The notes under the pieces were generated by a model. It was not told the DNA's origin. It searched no databases and saw only the letters and a program-made list of their open reading frames with translations. Made by a program: the position numbers and the translations under genes. 64,000 bases of DNA from a virus: the IMG/VR virus record IMGVR_UViG_3300047476_000639, positions 1-64,000 of that record, one strand, 5' to 3'. How positions within the stretch are numbered: the first letter of the stretch is position 1; the number at the start of each line of letters is the position of its first letter. This document shows positions 1,102 through 62,397 of the stretch, piece after piece.

Positions 1102-1965
1102 ATGAAAAAGTTCCGAGAATATATCACTGAAGAAATGATGCCTTATGCTCAAACCGAAAAAGGGTTTGTAGGTGTCGATAATGGTCCTGTTAGAGATAAC
1201 ATCAATATTCATTTAACTTCTATCACTGCTCGACCATACGCAACACCTTATCATGCTCTAGAAATGGTGCGTAAAGTTCTTGCACCATTTCATATCGGTC
1301 TGCCAGCAACAAACTTCTTGGCTGGTGATTCCGGCCATGAAGTTTTTGAGATCAATCAATTTGGTGAACGCATCGGCATGAAAAACAATGGTGATGTTGT
1401 CACCACAACAGGATCATCTTACTTTGTCTACTTTGAGTACTCAATGAATGATAAAGGTTCTTTTGATATATTCTCGGAAATTGTTAATAAAGAAGAGCTT
1501 GATGAACTTCTTGCCGATGTAGAAGATGAAATGGAAGAGGGTGACGAAGAGTATTACGACGATGATGTAGATGCTTCTGATTCTTACGATTCTTACAAAT
1601 CAGATAATAAAATAAATGAAGCAAAAGATTTTAAGAATGACTATGATCGTAACTGGAAGTATGTGAAGATGCATAATGCTGCTGCCAAGAAAGCAGGTGA
1701 GTACATAGATGATAAAAAGTTTGATAAAGCAAAGCTTAAAGTCAAGATGATGAAGCGTATCTCTAATAAGATTAGAGATCCTGATTCTGTTGATGAAGAC
1801 TATGATCTTGATTGGGCAAAAGAAACAAAACATACCAAAAACATTTTGTCTGGTGCAAGAAGAAAAGATGATAAGAAAAAGTGGAAAAGTTTTGTCAAAG
1901 ATGCTAACAAGAGAGCAGTAACAGGTATGTCTGGTAAAGCAGAGGGTGAAAAGCGCGAAAAGTAA
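1102..1965 (+). CDS. putative capsid-targeted internal protein with acidic central region
   Basis: N-terminus MKKFREYITEE resembles the T4 IPIII capsid targeting sequence; D/E-rich stretch; K-rich C-terminus. Confidence 0.5.
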   Translation: MKKFREYITEEMMPYAQTEKGFVGVDNGPVRDNINIHLTSITARPYATPYHALEMVRKVLAPFHIGLPATNFLAGDSGHEVFEINQFGERIGMKNNGDVVTTTGSSYFVYFEYSMNDKGSFDIFSEIVNKEELDELLADVEDEMEEGDEEYYDDDVDASDSYDSYKSDNKINEAKDFKNDYDRNWKYVKMHNAAAKKAGEYIDDKKFDKAKLKVKMMKRISNKIRDPDSVDEDYDLDWAKETKHTKNILSGARRKDDKKKWKSFVKDANKRAVTGMSGKAEGEKREK

Positions 1966-1967
1966 TA

Positions 1968-2354
1968 ATGATCAATAATCTAAGTGATGATAACTTTATA
2001 CTCTATGCGATGAAGTCTTACGATAAACCCAACTGCATTATGAGTGAATTTGAAGAAGACTTCAAAAGACTAAAGTATGTCAAGCGTCTCATTAAGAGAT
2101 ACAAGGTTACAGGTGAATTGAAAGAGCGGTTGATACTTAATCATATCATCATTCTTACAAATGTATTCGGTGTAGAACCTGCGGTGAGAATGTTGTTCTA
2201 TAAGATAGACGAAACGGACTATCATGTGCTGAAGACGTTCTTACTATTTTTGAACTTCATGCCTCAGCACATAAACGGAATAAAAGGAAAGTACCTGAAC
2301 TCATCAGATATAGGAGTAGATATCTTGGTAGGTAAGAGGTTACAGGATCTTTAA
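1968..2354 (+). CDS. hypothetical protein
   Basis: ORF immediately following the previous stop (TAATAATG). Confidence 0.45.
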   Translation: MINNLSDDNFILYAMKSYDKPNCIMSEFEEDFKRLKYVKRLIKRYKVTGELKERLILNHIIILTNVFGVEPAVRMLFYKIDETDYHVLKTFLLFLNFMPQHINGIKGKYLNSSDIGVDILVGKRLQDL

Positions 2355-2396
2355 TAAAGGTATTCATTTCATGGTGGACATAGCCATTATGAGGTC

Positions 2397-3161
2397 GTGT
2401 CAAGAGGTTGTCAAGAGAAGAAGATGAAGAAGCTCATTAGAAAAAAAATTCAAGAAGGCGAAAGCACATGGGACAGTATCTCTGCTTTCGGAAGACAGGC
2501 TGCTGATACCGCTACATTTGGTGGTTACAAATATGCTAGAGCCGGTGCAGACTATGCAGCAAAGAATATCGCAAGCATGGCAGGTTACGGCAAAGGTACA
2601 ACATACGATAAAGAGTTAGATCAGGAAAAAGAAAAGCTTGCACATGATGATGCAGAACACCAACAAGCATCATCAGCAGGAAGACTAGCAGGCGCAACAG
2701 CGGTGGTTGCTGCACCAGAAATTCCTGTTGTAGGCGCTACAATCGGTTCTGCAATCAGTGCTGGTGATAAAGCCAGCAAGATTCCGTATTATCTAGGTCT
2801 AGCAAAGAAAGCCATTGGTCTTGAAGAAGAGATGACTGCTGGCTCAGGTCAAATCGCAGGAATTGGTATTGGTCCACAAGGTGAACCGGGAAGACCTGCA
2901 CAAATGATGCCAATGGTTAAGAGAGCCAAGCGTGGTAAGTTAGGACAATGGGACACTTTTCAAGTTTCGTCCGATAGATTTCATAAGATCAAAGAAGAGA
3001 AGCGCAAGGGTGCTCAGTGGCGCAAGTATCTAGAAGAAGATGACTACTATCACGACATTCGTGAATATGCCAATCATCCAAAGAATAGAAAGAAGCCGAT
3101 CATCATTCAAGATGAACGTACTGGTGCTATGACATTTGCGCGTTACGGTAAGGAAAGATAA
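2397..3161 (+). CDS. hypothetical Gly/Ala-rich protein
   Basis: ORF; start may be an internal ATG (MKKLIRKK); G/A-rich central segment. Confidence 0.45.
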   Translation: MSRGCQEKKMKKLIRKKIQEGESTWDSISAFGRQAADTATFGGYKYARAGADYAAKNIASMAGYGKGTTYDKELDQEKEKLAHDDAEHQQASSAGRLAGATAVVAAPEIPVVGATIGSAISAGDKASKIPYYLGLAKKAIGLEEEMTAGSGQIAGIGIGPQGEPGRPAQMMPMVKRAKRGKLGQWDTFQVSSDRFHKIKEEKRKGAQWRKYLEEDDYYHDIREYANHPKNRKKPIIIQDERTGAMTFARYGKER

Positions 3162-3163
3162 TA

Positions 3164-3952
3164 ATGATCACTAGAGAAATGCTTAAGAAGATTGCACCAA
3201 ACTCAAAAGAAGAAATCATTGGTCCTTTGGTTGGCTATCTCAACATGTACATGCCAAAATATGAAGTGAACAATTATCTACGTGTCTGTCATTTCATTGC
3301 ACAGGCGGCACATGAAGCGGCTTCGTTTAGAACACTAGAAGAATATGCATCAGGTGCGGCTTATGAAGGACGCAAAGATTTGGGTAACACACAACCCGGT
3401 GATGGCATTCGCTACAAGGGCCGTGGTATATTCCAGCTAACAGGTCGCGCCAACTATCGCACAATAGGTGCTAAGATAGGAAAAGATTTGGAGAATAATC
3501 CAAAACTTGCAGAAACACCAGAGATATCAGTATTGACCGCTCTTGAGTATTGGAAATCACGCAAGCTTAATCCTCTTGCAGATAAAGATGATGTGCTTGC
3601 TATTACGAAGAAGATCAATGGCGGCACTAATGGATTTGAAGATCGTAAGAAGTATCTCGCTAAAGCTAAGACTGTTATACCTAAAGATTTTTCATTCAAA
3701 GAATCAGAACCTGAAAGTCCTCCACCTCCTGTAGATCCTTTAGTGCCTTCAATCGTCGTGGCAAAACGCGGTGATGTGTCACCTTACATTGCTGATTTAC
3801 AGAACATGTTGATCAGAAAGGGTGCAAGACTTGCTAAAGACGGAAACTTTGGGCCAGCAACTGAAGCTGCTGTGAAAGAATTCCAGACAAAAAGCAAATT
3901 GCCTGTCACAGGTCAGATCGACACTGACACACTTAATCTGTTGATGGTGTAA
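3164..3952 (+). CDS. endolysin: GH19 chitinase-like lysozyme domain plus C-terminal peptidoglycan-binding domain
   Basis: GH19 signature GRGIFQLTGRANY and AAHEAASF; C-terminal PG_binding_1-like DGNFGPATEAAVKEFQ...LPVTGQID. Confidence 0.8.
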   Translation: MITREMLKKIAPNSKEEIIGPLVGYLNMYMPKYEVNNYLRVCHFIAQAAHEAASFRTLEEYASGAAYEGRKDLGNTQPGDGIRYKGRGIFQLTGRANYRTIGAKIGKDLENNPKLAETPEISVLTALEYWKSRKLNPLADKDDVLAITKKINGGTNGFEDRKKYLAKAKTVIPKDFSFKESEPESPPPPVDPLVPSIVVAKRGDVSPYIADLQNMLIRKGARLAKDGNFGPATEAAVKEFQTKSKLPVTGQIDTDTLNLLMV

Positions 3953-3953
3953 G

Positions 3954-4418
3954 ATGAAGACGCTCAAATCATTTCTTGAAGAAGCCATGACAACACCATA
4001 TGAAAATTTCTATGCAGGTGTAGAAAAAGGAAAATATGGTGATACTCATCGATATCATTTCTATGATCATAAGAATAGACCTTTTGCCGTTCAGATTTAC
4101 AACCGTACTGAAGGTATGACAAAAGGAAAAGCGGAAGTGTCGTTCGAAGATGAACACGGTTCAATAGGAACAACAGGCCAGTCCGGTAAACATGCTATGA
4201 GAATATTTTCAACAGTGAAAGATATCATGAAGAAACATGCAGATACCCATAAAGACATAGATCATTATGTCTTTTCTGCATTCAAGAATGAAAAAGATCC
4301 TGAAAACAAAGTAGATTCAAAAGCAAAACTATATTCAACTATCGCAAAGGCTCACGGCGGAGCTAAAACAGCAGAGACTGATTTTTTTCACAACTATAAA
4401 GTACCAATCAAGAGGTAA
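3954..4418 (+). CDS. putative capsid-targeted internal protein
   Basis: N-terminus MKTLKSFLEEA matches the T4 CTS pattern MKTYQEFIAE; TAAGATG overlap with the endolysin stop. Confidence 0.5.
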   Translation: MKTLKSFLEEAMTTPYENFYAGVEKGKYGDTHRYHFYDHKNRPFAVQIYNRTEGMTKGKAEVSFEDEHGSIGTTGQSGKHAMRIFSTVKDIMKKHADTHKDIDHYVFSAFKNEKDPENKVDSKAKLYSTIAKAHGGAKTAETDFFHNYKVPIKR

Positions 4419-4423
4419 AAATA

Positions 4424-4708
4424 ATGGAATCATGGATCAAGCAATATTGGAGACCTGCAATTGCATGGCAATATCTTGCTGTGTGTTTATTTGACTTTAT
4501 AATTTTTCCTGCTGCATTCATGTATCTCACAAAACAACCATGGGATCCAATCACTCTCAAAGAGGGTGGGTTCTATCATCTTGCTATGGCAGCGATTATC
4601 GGTGTTGCAGCATGGACAAGAGGACAAGAAAAGATACAGCGTATTACATTGGGTGACGAACTCTTGGAACGTACAACAACAACTCAGACACCTACAGGAA
4701 CAAAATGA
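4424..4708 (+). CDS. small membrane protein (possible holin)
   Basis: Two predicted hydrophobic helices; sits near the endolysin. Confidence 0.4.
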   Translation: MESWIKQYWRPAIAWQYLAVCLFDFIIFPAAFMYLTKQPWDPITLKEGGFYHLAMAAIIGVAAWTRGQEKIQRITLGDELLERTTTTQTPTGTK

Positions 4709-5463
4709 AAACATTCTTAGAATACCTAAAAGAAGAAGGTGTGCTTGATAGCATCGGCACAGGATTCAATCAGGTGCTTAATCCTATTCGTAGACAGTTA
4801 GGTGTAAAAACCGGTGAACTTCCTGCTGGCACCAAAGAAGTTGATTACTCTGCTATTGGCAATAAAGCTCTTAGTACATTTGACACTGCAATGTCTGCAT
4901 TTGGTGGTGCCGATCCCGGTAAGAAGAATATCGATAAACCTAAAAATGTTTCATCTAAAATTCAAGATAGAGTGCCTCAACAAATTCCAAGAAGTCCTCT
5001 AGATAAAGCACCAGAAAGACAAACATCTGTTGCATTCCAGAGACAATTATCACGCGATGTTGCTCCTCGTCCACAGTTTGGCCAGGATACCGCAATGAAG
5101 ATGTTGAAGTTTGAAAGAAAATTGAAAGCTGACATGAAGTCATTTGATGATGATATGAAGATGCGAAAAGCTGAGTTTGATATAAAGTTCAAAGCTGCAA
5201 TGGAAAAGAAGCAACCATCTAAAGCTTCTATTGGTGATACAGGAATCAAGAAGACTACAACAAGTCTTGTTAACAAGTCTCAGCTTGCACCGGTTGAAAA
5301 CCAGAAAGCATCTTCTGGTGGTTCATACAAGATCAAGGCAGGCGACAATCCAACAAAGATCGCTAAGGACTTAGGAATGACTTTGAAAGATTTAGAAGCG
5401 AAGAATCCAGGAATACTTAAGCGTTCTAAGAGATTGAAGATCGGCGGCACCGTTAATAGATAA
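4705..5463 (+). CDS. LysM-domain protein with CTS-like N-terminus
   Basis: N-terminus MKTFLEYLKEE; C-terminal LysM YKIKAGDNPTKIAKDLGMTLKDLEAKNP. Confidence 0.6.
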   Translation: MKTFLEYLKEEGVLDSIGTGFNQVLNPIRRQLGVKTGELPAGTKEVDYSAIGNKALSTFDTAMSAFGGADPGKKNIDKPKNVSSKIQDRVPQQIPRSPLDKAPERQTSVAFQRQLSRDVAPRPQFGQDTAMKMLKFERKLKADMKSFDDDMKMRKAEFDIKFKAAMEKKQPSKASIGDTGIKKTTTSLVNKSQLAPVENQKASSGGSYKIKAGDNPTKIAKDLGMTLKDLEAKNPGILKRSKRLKIGGTVNR

Positions 5464-5473
5464 GAGGTAAAAT

Positions 5474-5983
5474 ATGTTAGCATTATTATCGCCACTCTTT
5501 GGCATTCTAGGCAGTTTACTGCCTTCTATTGTGAGAATATTTGAGCGAAAGCAGGAGATTAAGTATGAGATCGAACTTACAAAAATCAAGTTGGATGCGG
5601 CAGAACGACAAGCCGATCTCACTTACAGTATTGAAATGGTCAAGAACGATGCTGTCTCACGACAATCTGCTCTTGATCATGATAAGTCTCTTGATGGTGG
5701 AGTCTTTATTAACGCACTACGCGCTTCTATTCGCCCTGTTATAACATATACATTCTTTTTCCTTTTCTGTGCAGTGAAGATCGCCGCTGCCTATGTCATG
5801 CTCTCAACAGGACAATCTGTACCTGAGATGTTGAAGGCTGTGTGGGATATTGAAACGATGTCACTATTCTCTACGATCATTGCTTTCTGGTTTGGTAGTA
5901 GAGTTATGGAAAAGCAAGAGAGAATTGCACAACCTAAACTCAATGTTACTGTGACAAAGACTGAACAGAAGAACACTAAATAA
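5474..5983 (+). CDS. membrane protein, candidate holin (about 3 TM helices)
   Basis: N-terminal TM LALLSPLFGILGSLLP, central amphipathic region, two C-terminal TM helices. Confidence 0.4.
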   Translation: MLALLSPLFGILGSLLPSIVRIFERKQEIKYEIELTKIKLDAAERQADLTYSIEMVKNDAVSRQSALDHDKSLDGGVFINALRASIRPVITYTFFFLFCAVKIAAAYVMLSTGQSVPEMLKAVWDIETMSLFSTIIAFWFGSRVMEKQERIAQPKLNVTVTKTEQKNTK

Positions 5984-20308: not shown

Positions 20309-21235
20309 GTGTCATATTATGAAGAGCAGCGCCGCAAGGCATTTGAACAGGAACAACAGGAGAAGAAAGCAATGATTAAGCGGGTCGCAACGTTTGCGGG
20401 ACTTGGTGTGGTGTCTTTCGTGGCACTTGGTATTTTCTTTGGATCGTGGTATACGGTCGATGAAGGTGAACGTGCAGTCATTCTGACAAACGGATCTTTT
20501 ACCGAAATTGCTCAGCCGGGTCTGAACTTCAAGATGCCTTTTATACAGGCCGCAAGGTTCTTCACGATCCGTAATCAGGTTGCTGAGTTTGATCAAATGG
20601 CAGCATATTCATTTGATCAGCAGATTGCTGAAATGAAAGTGTCTGTCAACTATCAGATTGCTCCAGAACTTGTAGAGCGTATCTATAAGGAATATGGATC
20701 GATGGAAGGTGCAGTAACTCGCGTCATCAATCCAAAGGCTCTAGAGACTGTAAAGACCATTTTTGGTCAGTATAGCGCACAGCGAGCCATTCAGGAACGC
20801 GGTAAGCTCAATACTGATATTACTCTTGCACTTCAGAATGCGGTAAAGTCTTCTGGTATTCAGATTACTTCTGTTCAGGTCGAGAACATCGATTTCTCTG
20901 ATGCATATGAAGGTGCTGTTGAAGCCGCTGCAAAGGCAAAGGCAGACATTGAGCGTTCTAAGTCAGAACTACTTCGTGTCGAACAGGAAGCACAGCAGAA
21001 GGTAAAGCAGGCACAGGCTGAAGCAGAAGCTAAGAAGCTTCAGGCAGATGCTGATGCCTATGCCACTTCCGCAGCAGGTAAGGCAACCGCTGAAGCAATC
21101 CGCGAACGTGGTGCTGCACTGAGAGATAATCCTCAGCTTGTTGATCTTGTTGCCGCAGAACGTTGGAATGGTCAGCTTCCTACCAGCATGGTACCAGGAT
21201 CGTCTGTACCCTTTATCAATGTTCAGCCTAAGTAA
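20309..21235 (+). CDS. SPFH / band-7 (prohibitin, HflK/C-like) domain membrane protein
   Basis: N-terminal TM followed by SPFH-like YTVDEGERAVIL...; coiled-coil AQAEAEAKK; start could instead be the internal MIKR. Confidence 0.65.
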   Translation: MSYYEEQRRKAFEQEQQEKKAMIKRVATFAGLGVVSFVALGIFFGSWYTVDEGERAVILTNGSFTEIAQPGLNFKMPFIQAARFFTIRNQVAEFDQMAAYSFDQQIAEMKVSVNYQIAPELVERIYKEYGSMEGAVTRVINPKALETVKTIFGQYSAQRAIQERGKLNTDITLALQNAVKSSGIQITSVQVENIDFSDAYEGAVEAAAKAKADIERSKSELLRVEQEAQQKVKQAQAEAEAKKLQADADAYATSAAGKATAEAIRERGAALRDNPQLVDLVAAERWNGQLPTSMVPGSSVPFINVQPK

Positions 21236-30517: not shown

Positions 30518-31230
30518 TGTCTAAGAAGCCTAAGAACAAAGCGCAAGCAAACAATAACAACGAAAAGAAGGCTGCACATTTCGAGTTGAGACATATTAAA
30601 CCTCTCACTCCAAATCAAGAAAAAGTCTTTACAGCATATCGTCAAGGTTATCACTTGATGCTTCACGGATTTGCCGGTACAGGCAAAACATTCTGCGCTC
30701 TTTACTTAGCATTAAATGAGTTATTGTCTAATGAGTCCATATACAACAAGATCGTTATCATTAGATCGGTTGTACCATCTAGAGATATGGGCTTTTTGCC
30801 CGGTTCAATGAAAGAAAAGATACAGGTCTATGAAGAGCCGTATCGTGAAATCTGTGATAGCTTATTTGGTCGTGGTGACGGGTATGACATACTGAAGATG
30901 AAGGGTATTGTACATTTCACTACAACTTCTTATCTCCGTGGTCTGACATTCAACAATGCTATTGTTATACTAGATGAAAGCCAGAACTTGTCGTTCCAAG
31001 AGTGTGACACAGTTCTGACAAGAATGGGTGATGAGAGCCGATTGATTGTTTGTGGTGATTTCAGACAGACAGACTTAAACAAGCCTCATGAGAAAGAGGG
31101 TGTTACTCAATTGATGCGAATTACCAATCGTATAAATACCTTTCAGCATATTGAGTTTGAGAAAGAAGATATCGTTCGCTCAGGCTTGGTCAAATCTTAC
31201 ATCATCCAAAAACACGAATTAGGACTATAA
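30518..31230 (+). CDS. phoH: PhoH-like ATPase
   Basis: Walker A LHGFAGTGKTF; PhoH block IVILDESQNLSFQECDTVLTRMGDESRLIVCGD; start at the ATG with caaggag RBS. Confidence 0.8.
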
Positions 31231-31232
31231 CA

Positions 31233-32567
31233 ATGACAAACAAGTACCTCATAGAGAGAGTATCAGATTATCTCGACAAGATGGGCAAGTACACTCTCAA
31301 TGAGGACTTGCTAATGGAAGAAGACATGCCGGATCAAAGTGAAGAACAGAGGGCCGAATGGATGCCTCCTGTTCTTCATGATTTCATGTTTCATTTGAGC
31401 GGTCCTAGTGACCCTCACGGAAACAAGAAAAAGGTTCTCATGGAAGAAGTTCTTGATGAGGTGACATTGATTGATACGACAAAAGGTATCGTTCCAATGG
31501 CACACAAGAACATGAACCTACCAAAGACCAGTGCTATCATCAATAAGACTGAAGAAGAGCGCGGCGGTAGAGAAGAAAATCTCCACAAGAAGATCAATGC
31601 AGGATTCAAGAAAGCTGATGCTGAAATGAGTTCTGAAGATAGAAAGACAAGAAGAGCTAAACTAAGAGAAGCAAGACAGACATTTGCTTCATTCGCGCAG
31701 GCGCGAGGCTTCAAGAGTAGAACCGCACCAAAGCTTATGGGCGGAAATATGAAGACTGAAAAATCTTCAGGTGAAGGCGTTCTTACAACAGGACTCAATC
31801 TTGCGCCACATGCTACAGCAGGACTTCATGGCTTCGATACTTGTCCAAAAGCATCAAAAGATTGTAGAAAAAATTGCCTAGGTACAGAAGCAGGCGGTAA
31901 TCGCCAGTATCCAGATGCCGCTTTGGCAGCTAAGACTTTAAGAACACACTTTGTAGCCCATCATCCTGAACATGCTGCAAGAATTATGGATGCTGAGATT
32001 GAAGCACATAAGAAAGCAGCAAAGAAAAAGGGTATGATTCCTGGTGTTCGTCTTAATGTTACATCTGACATTTCTTGGGAACATCATGCACCAAAGATGT
32101 TTGAGCGTCACAAGGATGTCCAGTTTTATGACTACACCAAGATGCCAAACAGAGTTATGAGACAGTATGAGCCAAAGGTGGAAGGCAGTCATTTCAATAA
32201 GGCGGGTCATCCTGCCAACTATCACCTAACACTTTCTCATACAGGCACAGGACACGCGGAATCAAATGATGCTGATGTGGTAAAGGTGCTTGAAAAGGGT
32301 GGTGTCGTTGCGTCTGTATATCAGCGCGGCAAGAAGAACAAGAAGCCAACTGCATATGAAGATGTGAAGACAGGTAAGAGATATCCTGTTGCAAACGGCG
32401 ACGATGACGACAACACGTTTGATCGTCACAACACTCTCGGCAAAACAGAAGGTTCACCTAGCCATGGTGTCGTTTCTGGTTTACAATTGAAGGGTGTTAA
32501 GAATGAAGACGCCGGAGTATTTGCTAATAAAGTAGATGATGACGGAATCGTTCGCATCAATAAGTGA
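31233..32567 (+). CDS. hypothetical protein (444 aa)
   Basis: Long ORF, charged, with a Cys cluster CPKASKDCRKNC. Confidence 0.45.
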   Translation: MTNKYLIERVSDYLDKMGKYTLNEDLLMEEDMPDQSEEQRAEWMPPVLHDFMFHLSGPSDPHGNKKKVLMEEVLDEVTLIDTTKGIVPMAHKNMNLPKTSAIINKTEEERGGREENLHKKINAGFKKADAEMSSEDRKTRRAKLREARQTFASFAQARGFKSRTAPKLMGGNMKTEKSSGEGVLTTGLNLAPHATAGLHGFDTCPKASKDCRKNCLGTEAGGNRQYPDAALAAKTLRTHFVAHHPEHAARIMDAEIEAHKKAAKKKGMIPGVRLNVTSDISWEHHAPKMFERHKDVQFYDYTKMPNRVMRQYEPKVEGSHFNKAGHPANYHLTLSHTGTGHAESNDADVVKVLEKGGVVASVYQRGKKNKKPTAYEDVKTGKRYPVANGDDDDNTFDRHNTLGKTEGSPSHGVVSGLQLKGVKNEDAGVFANKVDDDGIVRINK

Positions 32568-32573
32568 GTTGAT

Positions 32574-33005
32574 ATGCCAAGATTAGTATTGATTACAGGC
32601 GGCTTTGATCCTGTACATTCAGGTCATATAGAGTATATCAATGCCGCCAAGTCTCTCGGAGACTATCTGTTTATTGGGTTAAACAGTGATGATTGGCTTG
32701 CTCAGAAAAAGGGCAAGCCGTTCATGCCTTGGCATGAGAGACATATGATACTTGCAAACTTAAGGAGTGTTGATGATGTATTTGCTTTCAATGATAACGA
32801 TGGTACTGCTATCGATGCTATTAGGACTATTCGTGAAGCGAACCCTGATTGCACGATCATCTTTGCAAACGGTGGCGATAGAACGAAAGAAAACATACCA
32901 GAGATGAACTGTGGTGTTGATGATATAGAATTTGTGTTTGGTGTTGGTGGTTCAGATAAGAAAAACAGTTCTAGTTGGATACTCAATAAATGGAATGAAA
33001 AATGA
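32574..33005 (+). CDS. cytidylyltransferase-like nucleotidyltransferase
   Basis: Rossmann-like VLITGGFDPVHSGH (HxGH motif). Confidence 0.55.
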   Translation: MPRLVLITGGFDPVHSGHIEYINAAKSLGDYLFIGLNSDDWLAQKKGKPFMPWHERHMILANLRSVDDVFAFNDNDGTAIDAIRTIREANPDCTIIFANGGDRTKENIPEMNCGVDDIEFVFGVGGSDKKNSSSWILNKWNEK

Positions 33006-33535
33006 AGACACTAAAACAATTCCTTAAAGAAGCGTTTGATGCTGAAGCAATCAAGATTGCCAATTCTACATCACGAACATCAGGCGCAGTTGGTGCCAAA
33101 GCTATTACACCTCGTTATGTTGAATCCATTGCAAACGCGAAGCAAACCGTTTTAGACTTCGGTTCTGGTAAAGATGCTGCACATGCAAAACGTTTGCGTG
33201 AAAAAGGACTGAATGTCACTGCACATGAGTTTGGTGATAATCAAAACGAGAACCATGATCCTGACGCATTATCTAGACAATATGATCATGTTTATGCATC
33301 TAATGTTTTGAATGTACAGTCTAGCAAGCCGATGATGCATGAGACACTTAATCAGATACACCGAGCCGTCAAGAAAGGCGGAAGCTTTACCGGTAATTTC
33401 CCAATGTCACCACGCAAAGCAGATGATATTGATGCTGATCATGTACATCAGGAATTAGAGAAGAGATTTGAAACAGTGAAGCGTGTTGGTGGATCAAAGA
33501 AGGCGCCGCTGTTCCATGCGACGAATCCAAAATGA
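33002..33535 (+). CDS. SAM-dependent methyltransferase-like protein with CTS-like N-terminus
   Basis: N-terminus MKTLKQFLKEA; motif I VLDFGSGKD; YDHVYASNVLNV. Confidence 0.5.
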   Translation: MKTLKQFLKEAFDAEAIKIANSTSRTSGAVGAKAITPRYVESIANAKQTVLDFGSGKDAAHAKRLREKGLNVTAHEFGDNQNENHDPDALSRQYDHVYASNVLNVQSSKPMMHETLNQIHRAVKKGGSFTGNFPMSPRKADDIDADHVHQELEKRFETVKRVGGSKKAPLFHATNPK

Positions 33536-33729
33536 AGCACTTCATTAAGTATCTTGATGATAAGAATGCTGAGAAAGAAAAAGACATAGAGATGAAGATG
33601 AATGCGGCTATCACAGAGAACGATAAGACTATGTATGCCGCACATGATTATTATGGTAGTCCAAAAAAGTTGGTGTTCAAGCGCAAGTCACCAAGCTCTT
33701 CAGGTGGTAGCGCAGATGGTGGTGAATAA
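33532..33729 (+). CDS. hypothetical small protein
   Basis: ATGA overlap. Confidence 0.35.
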   Translation: MKHFIKYLDDKNAEKEKDIEMKMNAAITENDKTMYAAHDYYGSPKKLVFKRKSPSSSGGSADGGE

Positions 33730-33944
33730 TGTATCTTGATCCATGGATGATAGTTGTACTCATTCTAGCTTTCGGTATTTGCTCCTTGATCAGTAGAAGA
33801 CAAGGTGTTTATTTCGGAGTTGTTAACACTCTTCGAGGATTACACGAACAGAAAATTATCAAGATCGATACGAATGGTATAGTAAGTCCTTACAAGACAC
33901 TCGAAACGGTAAAAAAGAGAAAAAGAAAAGATGCTAAGTTTTAA
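33729..33944 (+). CDS. small membrane protein
   Basis: Hydrophobic helix IVVLILAFGICSLI. Confidence 0.4.
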   Translation: MYLDPWMIVVLILAFGICSLISRRQGVYFGVVNTLRGLHEQKIIKIDTNGIVSPYKTLETVKKRKRKDAKF

Positions 33945-34782
33945 GACATACTTGACTGAAGAGAAGAAGAAGAAAAAGAAGCAGCGTGAAGAATCCAAGC
34001 ACTATAATAAAGTCTTCATGGGTAAATCAGACATTGAAGCTGATGAGACTAAGAAGAACTATAACAAAGTCTTCATGGGCAAAAAGAAGATTGATGAAGA
34101 TATTCTTCCTGAACCTCACATTGGCCGTCCTTCAGGTGCGATTGAAACTCTACACAAGAAACTGTCAAGACATTACAAGTTTGGTAAAAAGCTTAAGCTG
34201 AGAGAAGAGCCTAAGCTTGATGATCCGCACGGCGATGAAAAGGTTGGCATTAGACGTTACACCGGTATTGCGTATAAACACATAAACAAAGCACTATATA
34301 AAGGTGATACCAGTCTTCTTTTACCAGAACATCAAGATGCAATGCAGCAAGTGATGGGCGCACAGAGACGCCATAAGACTCCTGTAGCCATGACTGTTCA
34401 CACAGGTATCAAGCGTGATCCAAGACAGATGGAAAAACACGAAGGTCAAATCAAAATGGAGATGCCGGCATTCACCAGCACTTCATTAGATGTGGATCAA
34501 GCTAAAGAGTTTGCACGACCATCAAACGAAGGAACTGGCAATCCCAACACATATGAAAATCATGTCGTACACATTGATGTACCAAAAGGTTCTCATGGTG
34601 TGTATGTTGCTCACCATAGTCAAATGCCAGATGAAAAAGAATTCATTCTTCATCCGGGCGCACGGGTGCATTTACATCCTGAACCAACTCATGTTGAAGA
34701 AAAAGATGATGGGTGGGGTGATACAACGAGAACATATCACTGGCGAGGTAAACTTGTACACGATGGTGTTAAAGACGTTTGA
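33931..34782 (+). CDS. ADP-ribosyltransferase (R-S-E class, Alt/Mod or exoenzyme-like) with CTS-like N-terminus
   Basis: YTGIAYKHINKALY (R-region), FTSTSLD (STS motif), EKEFILHPGA (ExE motif); N-terminus MLSFKTYLTEE; tandem NYNKVFMGK repeats. Confidence 0.65.
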   Translation: MLSFKTYLTEEKKKKKKQREESKHYNKVFMGKSDIEADETKKNYNKVFMGKKKIDEDILPEPHIGRPSGAIETLHKKLSRHYKFGKKLKLREEPKLDDPHGDEKVGIRRYTGIAYKHINKALYKGDTSLLLPEHQDAMQQVMGAQRRHKTPVAMTVHTGIKRDPRQMEKHEGQIKMEMPAFTSTSLDVDQAKEFARPSNEGTGNPNTYENHVVHIDVPKGSHGVYVAHHSQMPDEKEFILHPGARVHLHPEPTHVEEKDDGWGDTTRTYHWRGKLVHDGVKDV

Positions 34783-34836: not shown

Positions 34837-35466
34837 ATGAAAAGATATGTGATTGGTGATGTGCATGGTTGCTATGATGAACTGTGCGAACTGTTTGAGA
34901 AGATTGAGAAGCACCACGGCGGTTATGACTACAAGCTGATTTTTGTTGGTGACTATGTTGATCGTGGACCAAAATCAAAAGATGTTGTAGACTTCATTAT
35001 GAAGATGCAGAAGCGCGGCCATGTAGCTCTCATGGGCAATCATGAAGATATGCTTATCGCTGGTGAATACATGTATGCTGCTGAAACAATTGTCAGCTTT
35101 GGTGGTTTTCGCGGCCATTATATACCCGATTGGGCAATGAATTGGATGAAGGCACTGCCAAAGTATTATGAAGATGATACAATCATTGTGGCTCATGCTG
35201 GTGCTAATCCTGCATTTCCAATGAATGAACAAACAGATACTATGCTCTTGTGGTTACGATATCAGCCGCACCATAATGCACACATGGGTAAGCATTTCTA
35301 TCACGGACATACTCCACACATAGGTAAGATTGAGCAAGCAGAGGATCGCACAAATGTAGATACTGGTTGTGTGTATGGCGGACATTTGACGGCCGCTATT
35401 GTAGGAGATGATGGCAAACCTGAAGGTTTCATTCAGGTGCCACACAAGAACAGTGCGTATGCATAA
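34837..35466 (+). CDS. Ser/Thr protein phosphatase, PPP family (lambda PPase-like)
   Basis: GDVHGC, GDYVDRG, GNHE motifs. Confidence 0.75.
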   Translation: MKRYVIGDVHGCYDELCELFEKIEKHHGGYDYKLIFVGDYVDRGPKSKDVVDFIMKMQKRGHVALMGNHEDMLIAGEYMYAAETIVSFGGFRGHYIPDWAMNWMKALPKYYEDDTIIVAHAGANPAFPMNEQTDTMLLWLRYQPHHNAHMGKHFYHGHTPHIGKIEQAEDRTNVDTGCVYGGHLTAAIVGDDGKPEGFIQVPHKNSAYA

Positions 35467-35482
35467 AGCATATATACTGTAG

Positions 35483-35800
35483 TTATCGTTGAAGGAAAAC
35501 GAAAAACACTGAGGACTGGGGGGCGGTACCCCACGCCTCCACCACGAACACACTGAGAGTCTGACCAGCAGATCATGGTGAACTATGCAATGGGAATGTT
35601 CACTTGCTTGGTGTGTTCTTGATGGGGGCGAACTAGGATCGACTGAGTGTAGAATAGTTGACTGGAGATAACCGTAGGCGACTACGTACAAGCGCAAAAC
35701 TCTAAATGCAAACGATAACGTTCCTGCATATAAGGCTTACGCTCTAGCAGCGTGATACCTGTGGGTATGGCTCCACCTAGAAACAGAACGGGCCACTTTA
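35483..35800 (+). ncRNA. ssrA: permuted two-piece tmRNA (ssrA): acceptor piece ending ...CGCCUCCACCA, then intervening hairpin, then coding piece starting GGGGGCGAACUAGGAUCGAC with tag ORF (A)NDNVPAYKAYALAA-stop
   Basis: The 5' end matches the universal tmRNA start GGGGnnGAuucuGGAUUCGAC. Upstream, T-arm TGGGG-GGCGGTA-CCCCA is followed by CGCCTCC-ACCA, complementary to GGGGGCG with a G3-U70 wobble. cucuaaauGCAAACGAU... parallels the E. coli resume region; the tag ends ALAA. Confidence 0.6.
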
Positions 35801-35824
35801 ACACACATGACACAGGAGTATATC

Positions 35825-36082
35825 ATGTCAAAGACACCTTATGAACTACGTTATGAACTTCTTATGCTTGCTCAAAACATCCTCACAGAACAAATTATGA
35901 ATGAACGCATTCGTCTTGAGAATGATTGGAGTCTCGCAAGAGAGAAGGCCTCCATTCAGCTTTCTAATGGTGACACAAAGATTGATCTTCCACCTTTCCC
36001 CGAGGTACCTAAGATCAGTGAAGAGGCTATTATCAAGATGGCAGAAAAGCTTAATACATTTGTGTCTAAGAATGCCGAATAA
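35825..36082 (+). CDS. hypothetical protein
   Basis: ATG with caggag RBS. Confidence 0.4.
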   Translation: MSKTPYELRYELLMLAQNILTEQIMNERIRLENDWSLAREKASIQLSNGDTKIDLPPFPEVPKISEEAIIKMAEKLNTFVSKNAE

Positions 36083-38474: not shown

Positions 38475-38506
38475 GGGAGAGTTTCGGCTCTCCCTTTTTT
38501 ATTTTT
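38475..38506 (+). terminator. rho-independent terminator between convergent + and - genes
   Basis: GGGAGAG-tttcgg-CTCTCCC followed by TTTTTTATTTTT. Confidence 0.6.
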
Positions 38507-41459
38507 GTGCGTAGATTGTTCTTGGCGCAGAGTGATAACCATGATTGTCGAAATATTTGTCTCGCGCATATGCCCTCAGTGCTGATGGTGCATAATCAAT
38601 TGCACCAAGAGAAGAAGGTGTCGTGGATTGATTTGACGGCGAATAACCGCCAGTAGACATTGAAGCTACATTCTTTGGTGTTTCAGTTGATTTGCTACTC
38701 AATACATCTTCGTCCATGGCCACATCAGAAGCTCTCTGATCTGTACCATCAAGAGATACAACATCTTGAGCTTGCCGTCTTTCTTTCGGAGGAATGATCA
38801 CAGCGGTTTCATCTGAAGCAACTTCAATGCCTGTTGGTGATCCATCTTTGCGAACAACCTTCAAATTATCTTTTGCTTTAATCGTGCCGCCTTCTGCCAA
38901 CTTCACTGAAGAGTTTGCATCTTCACCTGTTGTTGTGATAAGAGGTTCAGAGGTAGATTGACTTTGCTTTTCTGAGGTCTCTTTAGATCCATCAGCCATC
39001 ACAGCATCTTGGGCAGCTCCGTTTTCTCTTCTACCAATAGCAGTTTCAATTTCACTCTTCTTTGCTAAAGCCTCAGCACTATCATCTTTTATGTTTTGTA
39101 TCTCAGCAGTAAGCTCTTCAACGCTTTTAGCAGCATACTTTCTATCATTCTCTCTATACTTTAATTCGTTTTGTATGTCTTTGATTTCAAAGGCCGTGTC
39201 TTCATTTTGATCGGCAGATTTTTGCAGATACTCAAGTCTGTTCTGTAAAGACTTAGCTGATTTTGTAGTATAATCGTTATCATATTGTTCTTTTGTTTGC
39301 TCTTCTGCTGATGTTTCTGGTTGAACTTCAGCTTTAACTTTTTCTTCTTTTTGTTGCTCATAGAACTCCGCATATTTGTCTCTACTTAACTCATAACCAT
39401 TTTTTGTTTCCGTCCATAGACCATGCTTGACCATAGTATCTGCAAAGCGTTTGCCTTCGTCCCCAAAATATTCAGGATTAGTAAATAGTATTTGCCTTAC
39501 TTGATCATAAGTTTCGGCCGTAACATTTCTACTAGGAGCAAAATGCACATGGTTTGGATGTCCGTGTCCTTTAGGTGATAATCTCCAACCTGATGAAGAT
39601 GCTAATCTTCTACCTTGATTGATTAGTTCTGTAGGTTTTAATAAGCTGACCATTTTCTCATTAAACATCAAATCACCTAAAGCTTGATTGATCTCAAGAG
39701 AAGCTGCTTGAGATCCTACCTGCTTAACCCATTTTGGTCTTACTCCTTCACCACTCGAAATGTCAGCAGCCAAGGCGGCATGAGCACCTCTGTGATGTCC
39801 TTTTGGAGAATGTCCAGTGATAGTTTCGGTGCCCTCAGGATTAAAAACACCTTGTCTAACATATGGATTTTCACCAATGGCTTTACCAAGACCTAGACCA
39901 CCAATAAAGTTCATAGCAGGCATAAAGTTTTCTTCTGCATATTTTGATGTGGCGTTGCCTTTACCCGGTAACGAATAATCTTCAGAAGGATCGTAACCTC
40001 TAATGAAACTTCCTGCTGGTGCCGCTGTCAACTTTTCAGCAGTAGCACCACTCTCTGTTAATCCTTTCTTATGCATGATCTCAGCTAAGTTTGCTTCAGC
40101 CTCATTAAACTCTTCTGGAGTTTGAAGCTTTTCTGCAAAATCTACAATGTTTACACCAGCACCCATACCTCCGGGCCCGGTCTCTATGATACCACCAAGC
40201 TTCTTAAGTGTTTCATCATCCATTGACTTTACAACTTGAACAAATTTTGGCATATCTTCTGCTGAAACTTTTTCATCAAGAGTGGCTGTATCAATGCCCA
40301 TTTTCTTCGCTAATACAATTCTATCAGCAGCATTTACTATTTTTGGCTTTTCAAAGTCTCGCACAAATGCTGTGGTTGTTTCTTCAAAGTTGTTTGACGT
40401 TTTTAGAATTTCATTTAGTCCAGCATAGTTCTTATTATTTTGAAATAGATCAAAAGATTCATCAATCGAATCTTTCATCGACGCAATATACTCATCAACA
40501 TCTTTTACGTTGCTTTTGTTAACATGGTACTTTCTAACATCTACTCCGGCCTCGGCGCCTGCACCTCTAACATTCAAGTGAAACACACCGCCGGAATCAC
40601 CATGATCTCCATATGGTAATAGTCCTAAATGACTTTCAGCCATTGCATTCGCAACCATACCTTTGATGGCGGCATCTGTATATCCAGCCTCTTTACCTTT
40701 TTTAGCAATGTAATTGGCTAGTTCTGTTTGAATTTTAGCATTGTCTTCTTTATTACCCATACCGGCACCATATGTTGCGTAGTATTTGCCAGTTAGTTTG
40801 TTATCTCTAAATGTGGTAATAGGATTTTTGAATTTGAAACCTGTAACTTCACTTTCAGATTTAAACTCACTAAGAACTTTTTTCTTAGCCGCTTCGACCG
40901 ACATCGTGTCTTTGACATAGATGTTTCTTGTACTTTGAGGATGTACCGCCTGTTGTGATCTCTTTATGCCTATAGACTTTAGTTCTGCATCAGAAAGACC
41001 TGAAAAAGGGTCATCTGTTGATGAGAATGATTGTGTTTTCTTGTTTCTAACGACTTCATCAAAGGCCTTTCTCACATTTGCTGGTAGAGATTTTCTTAAT
41101 TTCTCTTTATTAACTTCACCAGTTAGATCGGAATCTTTACCAATTTGTTTTTTTGTCTTTGTGCCTTTTGGACTAACATATGAACTTGGCGCTTCGCTGG
41201 TAATCGGTGCAGAAGGTAAACCTTGTCCAAACTTACCAGAAGCTATCTGTGATGTGGCCAATTGAAATCCACCAATGTCAGGCAGTCTTTCTCTATAGTA
41301 CCTAGGGAAGAGATTGGCCAATTGTGATGGTGTCAGAGCCTGTATCAACTGAGAATAAAACGTGTTATCGGCTTGAGCCATATCAAAGCGTTGCCTTGCT
41401 GAAGTACTCTTCAGCAGCTTATCATAACTGATTGTATACTCATTTGGATTGATGGCCAT
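38499..41459 (-). CDS. large (986 aa) virion-associated protein with peptidoglycan-hydrolase-like motifs (M15 peptidase-like; possible SLT-like)
   Basis: GHSPKGHHRGAHAALAADIS plus PNHVHFAP resembles the M15/VanY H..G.A.D...H.H signature; AESHLG...GDSGGVFHLN is vaguely SLT-like; A/E/K-rich coiled regions. Confidence 0.45.
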   Translation of the reverse strand: MAINPNEYTISYDKLLKSTSARQRFDMAQADNTFYSQLIQALTPSQLANLFPRYYRERLPDIGGFQLATSQIASGKFGQGLPSAPITSEAPSSYVSPKGTKTKKQIGKDSDLTGEVNKEKLRKSLPANVRKAFDEVVRNKKTQSFSSTDDPFSGLSDAELKSIGIKRSQQAVHPQSTRNIYVKDTMSVEAAKKKVLSEFKSESEVTGFKFKNPITTFRDNKLTGKYYATYGAGMGNKEDNAKIQTELANYIAKKGKEAGYTDAAIKGMVANAMAESHLGLLPYGDHGDSGGVFHLNVRGAGAEAGVDVRKYHVNKSNVKDVDEYIASMKDSIDESFDLFQNNKNYAGLNEILKTSNNFEETTTAFVRDFEKPKIVNAADRIVLAKKMGIDTATLDEKVSAEDMPKFVQVVKSMDDETLKKLGGIIETGPGGMGAGVNIVDFAEKLQTPEEFNEAEANLAEIMHKKGLTESGATAEKLTAAPAGSFIRGYDPSEDYSLPGKGNATSKYAEENFMPAMNFIGGLGLGKAIGENPYVRQGVFNPEGTETITGHSPKGHHRGAHAALAADISSGEGVRPKWVKQVGSQAASLEINQALGDLMFNEKMVSLLKPTELINQGRRLASSSGWRLSPKGHGHPNHVHFAPSRNVTAETYDQVRQILFTNPEYFGDEGKRFADTMVKHGLWTETKNGYELSRDKYAEFYEQQKEEKVKAEVQPETSAEEQTKEQYDNDYTTKSAKSLQNRLEYLQKSADQNEDTAFEIKDIQNELKYRENDRKYAAKSVEELTAEIQNIKDDSAEALAKKSEIETAIGRRENGAAQDAVMADGSKETSEKQSQSTSEPLITTTGEDANSSVKLAEGGTIKAKDNLKVVRKDGSPTGIEVASDETAVIIPPKERRQAQDVVSLDGTDQRASDVAMDEDVLSSKSTETPKNVASMSTGGYSPSNQSTTPSSLGAIDYAPSALRAYARDKYFDNHGYHSAPRTIYAQK

Positions 41460-43615: not shown

Positions 43616-44010
43616 CCACGATCAGCACAATATTCTTCAGCGGCAGCCCACTTGGCTTGGTTCTTACCCCATGTTGTAACCTCTGTGATATATTGCTTAG
43701 TGATACGTTTCTTCTTGGCAGGTTCTTTTGTCTCTTTCTTGGGTTTTATCTCAATCAACATCTCTTTGATGTTACCCTTTGTATCTCTGGCCTTCATGTA
43801 GAAATCAGGAAAATACCTATGGTAGCGATTATCTAGAGGTGACTTGTAAGGTATGATGACCTCTTCGCTCGACCACTCTAGAACCGCTATATTCTCATCT
43901 AAGTATTTCATGAATTTACGCTCCCATAACGAACGATAGATAATGTTCGTGGGATCACCCTTGTACTTCTTTGGGTTTTTAGGAGTAAATTTGCCTTTGT
44001 AGGTTTTCAT
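43570..44010 (-). CDS. PD-(D/E)XK nuclease, T7 endonuclease I-like fold
   Basis: YRSLWERKF...LEWSSEEVIIPY...YFPDFYM...IEIKP parallels T7 endonuclease I FRSGLEDKV...FEYEEWKVPY...YTPDFLL...VETKG. Confidence 0.5.
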   Translation of the reverse strand: MKTYKGKFTPKNPKKYKGDPTNIIYRSLWERKFMKYLDENIAVLEWSSEEVIIPYKSPLDNRYHRYFPDFYMKARDTKGNIKEMLIEIKPKKETKEPAKKKRITKQYITEVTTWGKNQAKWAAAEEYCADRGWEFKIMTEDHLGIK

Positions 44011-62187: not shown

Positions 62188-62397
62188 GTGATGATGTCGG
62201 ACATAAAAACAGATGTACATGGTATATACAGAACGGAACAGGGTTATCTTATAAATAAAGATAACGAAAGTCTGCAAAACTACAGAACAACAAAAATGAG
62301 AATGTCTCAAATGAAGAGTGTTGTGAACGATGTTGAGCAACTAAAAAAAGATATGTCCGAAATAAAAGAATTACTAATAAAGGCGTTAAATAAATGA
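62188..62397 (+). CDS. small coiled-coil protein (possible fibre assembly factor)
   Basis: 69 aa between two fibre genes; ATGA overlap. Confidence 0.35.
   Translation: MMMSDIKTDVHGIYRTEQGYLINKDNESLQNYRTTKMRMSQMKSVVNDVEQLKKDMSEIKELLIKALNK

Follow-up and report, generated by a model that had tools for sequence, protein, structure and literature searches.

The capsid-delivered proteins of phage T4 include the anti-restriction protein IPI*, the host-range factor IPIII and the RNA-polymerase modifier Alt, and the capsid targeting sequence (CTS) of the T4 internal proteins (IPs) was reportedly described by Mullaney and Black in 1996. Alt, the T4 ADP-ribosyltransferase, is packaged and injected according to the T4 annotation. 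That a conserved CTS stands on diverse internal proteins is established for the T-even phages (PMC3012670; PMC9026906; bioRxiv 10.1101/2022.04.14.488369), and in T4 IPIII the information for targeting and for processing resides mostly in residues 4 and 7 and in residues 8 and 10, respectively, an Asp at position 10 blocking cleavage with targeting kept (PMC9026906). In the T4 genome (NC_000866), IPII and IPIII start with MKTYQEFIAE/A (the slash marks a known or predicted cut throughout), gp24 starts with MAKINELLRE/S and gp23 is cut at SFLTE/A. Here we analyze a 64,000-nt stretch of viral DNA (positions 1 to 64,000 of IMG/VR record IMGVR_UViG_3300047476_000639, hereafter the window) in which five otherwise unrelated open reading frames (ORFs) begin with a common ten-residue tag, M-K-T-F-x-x-[FY]-[LI]-x-E. 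In our judgment this tag is likely to be a T4-type CTS that is cut after Glu10, with the cargo kept in the head and expelled at infection.

The initial annotation of this DNA had pointed to five ORFs with a shared N-terminus, to their likeness to T4 IPIII and to an (L/I)-x-E site followed by Glu or Ala in each. We found all five on the + strand where they had been placed (Table 1), conforming to the pattern M-[KL]-x-[FL]-x-x-[FY]-[LI]-x-E-[EA], with each tag beginning at the first start codon of its ORF. Position 4 is Phe or Leu, position 7 is Phe or Tyr, position 8 is Leu or Ile, Glu10 is present in 5/5, and residue 11 is Glu or Ala, all in register with T4 IPII and IPIII. The architecture is thus that of the IPI, IPII and IPIII targeting sequences, namely a ten-residue N-terminal MKT-aromatic-x-x-aromatic-L/I-x-E followed by Ala or Glu, the difference being that position 4 is Tyr in T4. 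A regular-expression scan of all ATG-initiated ORFs of at least 50 amino acids (aa) on both strands of the window returned only the five tagged ORFs and one spurious antisense ORF. With respect to significance, the test pattern (Met1, a hydrophobic residue at 4, an aromatic residue at 7, Leu/Ile at 8 and Glu10) was set in advance from the T4 determinants, so the test was not fitted to the data. It is present in 5 of the 88 called genes, compared with 0.02 expected from the frequency (2.2e-4) of the same pattern lacking Met at internal positions (binomial P ~2e-11), which excludes chance.

Past residue 11 the five proteins share no similarity, and the DNA upstream of the tagged genes is unrelated from one gene to the next. 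BLASTP found no homology between the mature proteins and T4 IPII or IPIII, the only match being the tag itself (p4705, the product of the ORF at 4705, against ipIII from residue 1, E = 0.012). Once mature, all but one of the five are basic (isoelectric points (pI) of 9.2-10.0, compared with 9.6 for T4 IPII/IPIII), the exception being p1102 with a pI of 5.2. Unrelated and mostly basic mature proteins behind one conserved tag are likewise what the T4 internal protein system presents. It differs in that the T4 IPs are small and non-enzymatic, whereas the window cargo includes enzymes, and in that the window phage is only distant from T4: on sequence grounds it is an uncultured myophage of the T4 superfamily that comes closest to Pelagibacter phage HTVC008M, to which its gp6 is 38% identical. 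A second, post-cleavage motif that had been proposed for p1102 and p3954 did not hold up, and was rejected, as the similarity is not significant once the tag is removed (E = 0.29).

The tag is kept in relatives of the individual proteins. For p1102, 112 metagenome homologues were found with the tag retained, and among 57 distinct N-termini of the family, gathered by whole-protein homology and not by motif, Glu10 occurs in 57/57, Phe4 in 51/51, Leu/Ile8 in 56/57 and Phe/Tyr7 in 48/57, with positions 3, 5, 6 and 9 varying freely. Glu10 is also an invariant column in a 32-sequence alignment (A1) reaching down to 35% identity, and the most distant members of the family retain only M-x(1-3)-L-x-E-E. 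Homologues of the tagged ADP-ribosyltransferase (P0114-P0122, P0130 and P0134) likewise retain the tag, as ML[ST]FK.YL.E in orthologues and as MKTFKQFLEE or MKSFRTFLSE in more distant proteins. The homologue search for p3954 returned 3 proteins only; in its orthologues P0136 and P0138 residues F7, L8, E10 and A11 are invariant and positions 2-6 vary, and family members in loci L007, L019 and L020 are all tagged. At the nucleotide level, Phe4 is encoded by TTT in 21 cases and TTC in 17, and position 8 uses seven codons. This free codon variation at conserved residues indicates that the constraint acts on the peptide and not on the nucleotides.

Gene order around the first tag cluster is conserved in 31 related loci: p195, p1102, DUF7207, p2424, an endolysin (GH19 or M15), a holin-like gene, 0-3 further genes, p169, an ORF of ~139 aa and primase. 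The slot bounded by the holin-like gene and the following conserved gene, p169, is a site of exchange at which relatives keep 0-3 different tagged genes, and all 13 of its 13 non-redundant genes, picked by position and not by motif, carry the tag. Across the related loci, 56 of 703 ORFs are tagged, corresponding to 47 distinct proteins in 15 cargo clusters, among them a HAD-like protein and a DUF6267 protein whose Pfam domain starts past the tag. The description of this cluster as lying at the left end proved to be an artefact of the window edge, since relatives carry at least 10 kb more genes upstream of the p1102 block.

The tagged genes flank endolysin and holin-like genes in the window and its relatives, just as ipII and ipIII of T4 (NC_000866, 65416-66997) are immediate neighbours of its endolysin gene e, and in both systems the content of the locus varies between related phages. 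This shared position may be old synteny or coincidence. In locus L007 (14200-15330), two consecutive tagged genes have the near-identical upstream sequence ggttaYaagttaaaa(a)ttaaaATG, which suggests that a cassette, with the end of the gene before it included, was duplicated in tandem. Tag-like N-termini are also seen on DUF6267 proteins of cultured T4-like phages, specifically Methylophilales phage Melnitz (MZ577097.1, 12203-14528, MLTLINFSKYITE/D), Stenotrophomonas phage DLP_6 (KU682439.2, 52316-53551, MMKFTQFLAE/S) and phage C48C1 (OQ984149.1, 61824-63047, MMLDFKNFITE/Q), and these three could serve as experimental systems. Melnitz gene 15 starts with MQGFKTFLSE/A, and gp127 of HTVC008M has only MYNDLLVE/D.

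In terms of specificity, the tag pattern occurs in T4 (50 kb of segments) at ipII and ipIII only. A scan of IMG/VR with the tag written as degenerate DNA, ATGAARACNTTYNNNNNNTWYHTNNNNGARG, gave at least 120 matches. Of the 82 matches examined, 74 (~90%) are ORF starts, defined as ORFs of at least 50 aa with no upstream ATG, and 67 of 80 loci examined (84%) have T4-like core genes in their short flanks. The control pattern, in which the order of these codons was reversed, matched 25 times across all of IMG/VR; none of these matches (0/25) is an ORF start and 5 of them (20%) lie in weakly T4-like loci. This contrast identifies the tag as an N-terminal feature specifically of T4-like phage proteins. 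Its cargo is diverse, with at least 58 clusters among 126 tagged proteins (those of the related loci together with the collection-scan matches listed), and Pfam-backed examples outside the window include HicA with DUF6321, a cytidylyltransferase with a Zeta-toxin-like kinase, GNAT, DUF5661, a DPBB lytic transglycosylase and an HD_4 domain of the type known from ppGpp hydrolases.

The tag is further linked to the genes of the phage head. In loci L168, L106 and L114 a tagged gene lies between those for the portal gp20 and the protease gp21. It directly follows gp20 in L168 and L106 and in L168 also directly precedes gp21, L114 having the same arrangement; in L164, where gp21 was not called, a tagged gene lies downstream of gp20. 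L114 and L168 are thus tagged loci that themselves encode gp21. In T4 the region between gp20 and gp21 is where the prohead-core genes gp67 and gp68 are located, and T4 core proteins have short N-terminal L/I-x-E propeptides. The tags resemble the propeptides of gp67, gp68, gp24 and gp22 as short N-terminal peptides with an L/I-x-E site, removed by gp21 in T4 and predicted to be removed here. The tagged genes of the window differ from gp67 and gp68 in lying outside the head module and in having no sequence homology to them past composition. In four further loci (L146, L092, L170 and L149) tagged genes stand beside gp23 and gp3. An alignment of the gp23 propeptide boundary covering T4, HTVC008M, L146 and L170 gives SFLTE/A, AFLGE/I, SFLYE/S and EFLSE/T, respectively, the site in the non-T4 proteins being read from the alignment. 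Tag positions 7-10 would therefore present the same F-L-x-E as the predicted gp23 cut site of related phages. Taken together, the T4 register, the conservation pattern, the amino-acid constraint, the restriction to ORF starts of T4-like phages, the gp20-gp21 neighbourhood and the gp23 site all agree with the capsid-targeting function that was originally predicted, and which we support here as a computational prediction.

We propose the following model. Late in infection the tag, as a short amphipathic helix, would dock the precursor onto the scaffolding core of the prohead, with residues 4 and 7 making the main contacts. A gp21-family prohead protease would then cut past Glu10, at the L/I-x-E of residues 8-10, this being the enzyme expected to trim the major capsid protein at the same F-L-x-E, and the freed mature protein would remain in the head beside the DNA and exit through the tail at the next infection. 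The tagged proteins are thus probably packed into the capsid and passed on together with the DNA, as judged from their sequences. We infer each of these steps, from docking and cleavage through packaging to injection, as well as a host-directed role for the cargo, and the part of the model that connects the tag to the prohead protease is better supported than the part that makes the cargo injected effectors.

As predicted from sequence, the tagged set in the window combines two enzymes, an Arg-type ADP-ribosyltransferase and an S-adenosylmethionine (SAM)-dependent methyltransferase, with three other proteins: one with LysM, one that is small, basic and possibly of GNAT fold, and one that is acidic and conserved. 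The cargo labels of the initial annotation were borne out by domain searches. Specifically, the 33931 product matches Pfam ADPrib_exo_Tox at 45.2 bits (cut-off 23.4) and has the motifs of the R / S-T-S / E-x-E type (R108, S-T-S 183-185 and E-K-E 235-237), its similarity to T4 Alt being limited to 20 residues around the catalytic Arg (E = 0.004), with a match to phrog_802 at E = 1.1e-3. The identical ADP-ribosyltransferase was found on a second contig of 5.5 kb. The 33002 product matches Methyltransf_12 (34.4 bits) and Methyltransf_23 (30.6 bits), both above cut-off, and its mature pI is 9.3. In p4705 the C-terminal LysM (residues 208-247) is marginal, at 20.2 bits against a cut-off of 20.9, and is backed by the family member L020:14271, in which LysM scores 25.1 bits. 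The gene for p3954 starts 2 nt past the endolysin stop. Its AlphaFold2 (AF2) model is of low confidence, and the PDB entries ranking highest against the model are GNAT acetyltransferases throughout, none at a significant level, which gives a hint of a GNAT fold. The linker between the tag and the catalytic domain of the 33931 product contains a duplicated YNKVFMGK (residues 25-32 and 44-51), and Y-x-K-V-F-[IM]-G-K-like repeats recur in the homologues P0114-P0134.

The fifth tagged protein, p1102, consists of a conserved alpha/beta domain (~residues 25-145), an acidic tract and a variable basic tail. The domain is modelled by AF2 with a predicted local distance difference test score (pLDDT) of ~90; a search of the PDB gave no significant match, and its sole structural matches are uncharacterised viral proteins. 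The acidic tract has a compositional likeness to the acidic tails of T4 gp67, gp68 and gp22, with E = 0.008-0.03 in a tiny database. Within the family, an N-terminal domain (~residues 12-135) is strongly conserved and the C-terminal extensions differ completely in length and sequence, the overall length ranging from ~160 to 570 aa. The C-terminal module of the window protein (ETKHTKNILSGARRKDDKKKW...) recurs in P0007, P0008 and P0088, and alone as P0112. In this respect the p1102 family resembles a carrier with swappable tails.

Two candidates can be added to the five ORFs noted initially, so that at least five unrelated proteins of the window phage, and probably six or seven, use the tag. One is the 65-aa ORF at 33532-33729, a gene also called on an independent Logan contig; its tag has Asp at position 10, the residue that in T4 leaves targeting intact and stops processing. 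The other, p2424 (2424-3161), belongs to a family (L001-L032) whose N-termini differ widely but close, in nearly every case, with [LIV]-x-E; next come Asp, Glu or Gly and the stretch A-x-N-x-x-G-x-G-x-x-A-G-x-G. One member of this family, L008:1479-3905 (808 aa), has a full tag, MKDFFDYLTE/D. On this sequence evidence, which is weaker than that for the five tagged proteins, p2424 is possibly another protease substrate.

Several observations weigh against the model of a functional CTS on injected effectors. Neither the window nor any of the close-relative loci examined contains the head module with its gp21 and gp22 genes: local tblastn of gp20-23 from T4 and HTVC008M gave 0 matches in any of these loci, and the IMG/VR contigs followed downstream of the window end hold only ~20 kb of tail-fibre genes. 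The presence of gp21 and gp22 in the window phage would follow from the rule that T4-like phages share a core genome. HTVC008M, the closest cultured relative, has no gene matching the tag pattern (0/194), so the tag system is not universal in this branch. A scan of the window found no site of the T4-type late-promoter consensus TATAAATA near the first tag cluster. Some of the tagged families found elsewhere (DUF6267, HAD-like, cytidylyltransferase) look like ordinary enzymes for which a need for packaging is not obvious. Finally, p1102 is acidic and nearly universal in the lineage, which fits an assembly-core protein better than a variable effector. The label "effector" is our reading of the cargo, and p1102 may instead be a component of the assembly core.

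This last point extends to an explanation in which the tag does target the prohead and is cut there, with some or all of the tagged proteins being scaffold or core parts that are later degraded or expelled and not effectors. We consider it unlikely, and it would apply best to p1102 and p2424, which unlike the slot genes are conserved and syntenic in nearly all related loci. The acidic tract of p1102 (by composition only), the occupation of the gp67/gp68 slot by tagged genes in other contigs and the L/I-x-E propeptides of the T4 core proteins all speak for such a role. It sits poorly, however, with enzymatic cargo that has no obvious part in assembly (the ADP-ribosyltransferase and methyltransferase and, elsewhere, HicA, the Zeta-toxin kinase, GNAT and HD_4), with the fast turnover of the slot genes, which is typical for host-interaction genes, and with the injection of the IPs and Alt in T4.

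An amphipathic N-terminal helix might also serve a job away from the capsid, whether by addressing the proteins to another phage or host machine, by binding the membrane as part of the lysis cassette or by acting as a signal for timed degradation. Three tagged genes do lie within a lysis cassette (endolysin, holin-like, LysM), and HTVC008M has a gp21 gene but no tag. A role of this kind nevertheless appears improbable, as it leaves unexplained the residue-by-residue match to T4, including the invariant Glu10, the identity with the predicted gp23 cleavage site and the tagged genes beside gp20/gp21; moreover, the tagged genes at 33002 and 33931 are far from the lysis genes, and ipII and ipIII flank the endolysin gene in T4 as well. 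We give very little credence to the view that the shared N-termini are a mere by-product of chance, of translation-initiation preference or of a recombination scar left by cassette swaps at a common 5′ sequence. Starts with MK- and A-rich second codons are indeed common in expressed genes, and cassette exchange is clear at the slot, but chance is excluded by the gene count given above, and the conserved positions are 4, 7, 8 and 10, beyond positions 2-3. The equal-composition control is, furthermore, rare and never found at ORF starts. Codons are free at the conserved residues and upstream DNA differs between the tagged genes, and paralogy or a recombination scar was rejected on this codon diversity and lack of upstream similarity.

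With the T4-type CTS retained as the preferred reading, other systems can be compared in turn. Like T4 Alt, the 33931 product is an Arg-type ADP-ribosyltransferase with an N-terminal L/I-x-E propeptide encoded by a T4-like phage, but it has 283 aa compared with 682 aa, and its tag is of the IPIII type whereas Alt starts with MELITELFDE. The ejection proteins of T7 (gp14/15/16), P22 (gp7/16/20) and the phiKZ-like and SPN3US jumbo phages (E proteins) are likewise stored in the head and expelled at infection, as is predicted here. They differ in having long propeptides or none and motifs such as A-x-E and S-x-E, with no portable ten-residue tag. T7 gp16 has a peptidoglycan-active domain and so provides a precedent for LysM and DPBB cargo. 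A further parallel is that a protease related to gp21 cuts the E proteins of jumbo phages, again after Glu (PMC5694885). In the literature searched, we found no description of CTS-type tags in cyanophage-, pelagiphage- or Kyanoviridae-like phages, nor of such tags with enzymatic or toxin-type cargo; most subscription journals lie outside this coverage, so priority is not certain.

If the model is correct, the tag would be a sequence-only predictor, in uncultured T4-like phages, of proteins that are carried in the capsid and take effect within seconds of the start of infection, with a predicted cargo set that is much richer than that of T4 and enzymatic. The 120 or more occurrences in IMG/VR from one restricted pattern would then amount to a catalogue of candidate anti-defence and host-takeover proteins, and packaging by CTS fusions, a tool from T4, might be usable in phages that infect marine and freshwater bacteria, or be matched there by natural systems. 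More tentatively, and with somewhat less than even confidence, we suggest that the tag is a portable address label across environmental T4-like phages, beyond the T-evens, that loads toxin-type and host-modifying enzymes, which would make the capsid an effector-delivery device, the site beside the lysis genes a hotspot of effector exchange and the p1102 family possibly a carrier for its interchangeable tails.

Table 1. Tagged genes, candidates and other features of the window (coordinates in nt; a single number is the position given for the gene).
Feature	Position	Strand	Remarks
p1102, 287 aa	1102..1965	+	MKKFREYITE/E; tag residues 1-10 = nt 1102-1131
p2424, 245 aa, candidate protease substrate	2424..3161	+	MKKLIRKKIQE/G; atypical short propeptide
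Endolysin, GH19 + PG_binding_1, untagged	3164..3952	+	
p3954, 154 aa	3954..4418	+	MKTLKSFLEE/A; mature pI 9.2
Holin-like membrane protein, untagged	4424..4708	+	Weak GTA_holin_3TM and phrog_3427; left border of variable slot
p4705, 252 aa	4705..5463	+	MKTFLEYLKE/E; mature pI 10.0; in variable slot after holin-like gene
p169, 169-aa membrane protein, untagged	5474..5983	+	Conserved in most related loci; right border of slot
gp61 primase	6549		
ThyX	7746		
NrdA	8528		
RnlA	13747		
RNase H	24317		
PhoH	30415		
Late-promoter consensus TATAAATA	31131..31138	+	~100 nt upstream of gene run 31233-34782 with second tag cluster
Predicted SAM-dependent methyltransferase, tagged, 177 aa	33002..33535	+	MKTLKQFLKE/A; domain from ~residue 38
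65-aa ORF, candidate tag	33532..33729	+	MKHFIKYLDD; Asp at position 10; between tagged methyltransferase and ADP-ribosyltransferase
Predicted ADP-ribosyltransferase, tagged, 283 aa	33931..34782	+	MLSFKTYLTE/E
gp32	37521		
gp48	44049		Tail gene
gp6	50158		
gp7	52234		

The gene content of the window is that of a T4-superfamily myophage, its membership in the superfamily being supported by gp61 primase, NrdA, RnlA, gp32, RNase H, gp48, gp6 and gp7. After HTVC008M, the best gp6 matches are in cyanophages and in Methylophilales phage Melnitz, and gp6 of the window has matches in 2461 T4-like records. Within the collection of cultured phages, a nucleotide search gave no match for the window block and a protein search no close relative of p1102. 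With respect to late promoters, the window holds 4 sites of the consensus, compared with 2.3 expected, a count that is not significant. Besides the site listed in Table 1, those at 44010 and 54545 precede the tail genes gp48 and gp8 by 35-39 nt, and that at 62250 is inside a small ORF (62191-62397).

Several further features of the window lie apart from the tagged genes. A 986-aa ORF (38499-41459, - strand) has Phage_lysozyme2 at residues 248-386 as its sole clear feature and no tblastn match among 50,697 phage records; from its position beside hub genes, its product is probably a tape-measure or hub protein. In three stretches (11.6-13.0, 15.4-17.2 and 26.2-27.6 kb) the ORFs of both strands are all short or overlap one another, and no tRNA or Rfam match was obtained; these stretches may be non-coding or hold very small genes. 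An SPFH / Band 7 family protein with an N-terminal membrane segment is encoded at 20372-21235 (+ strand, 105 bits). At 35437-35846 (+ strand) there is a transfer-messenger RNA (tmRNA) gene of the two-piece (permuted) alphaproteobacterial type (Rfam tmRNA_permuted 118.8 bits, alpha_tmRNA 88.5 bits), for which ARAGORN gives the tag peptide ANDNVPAYKAYALAA. The type of this gene suggests that the host of the window phage is alphaproteobacterial; ssrA is also present in Melnitz.

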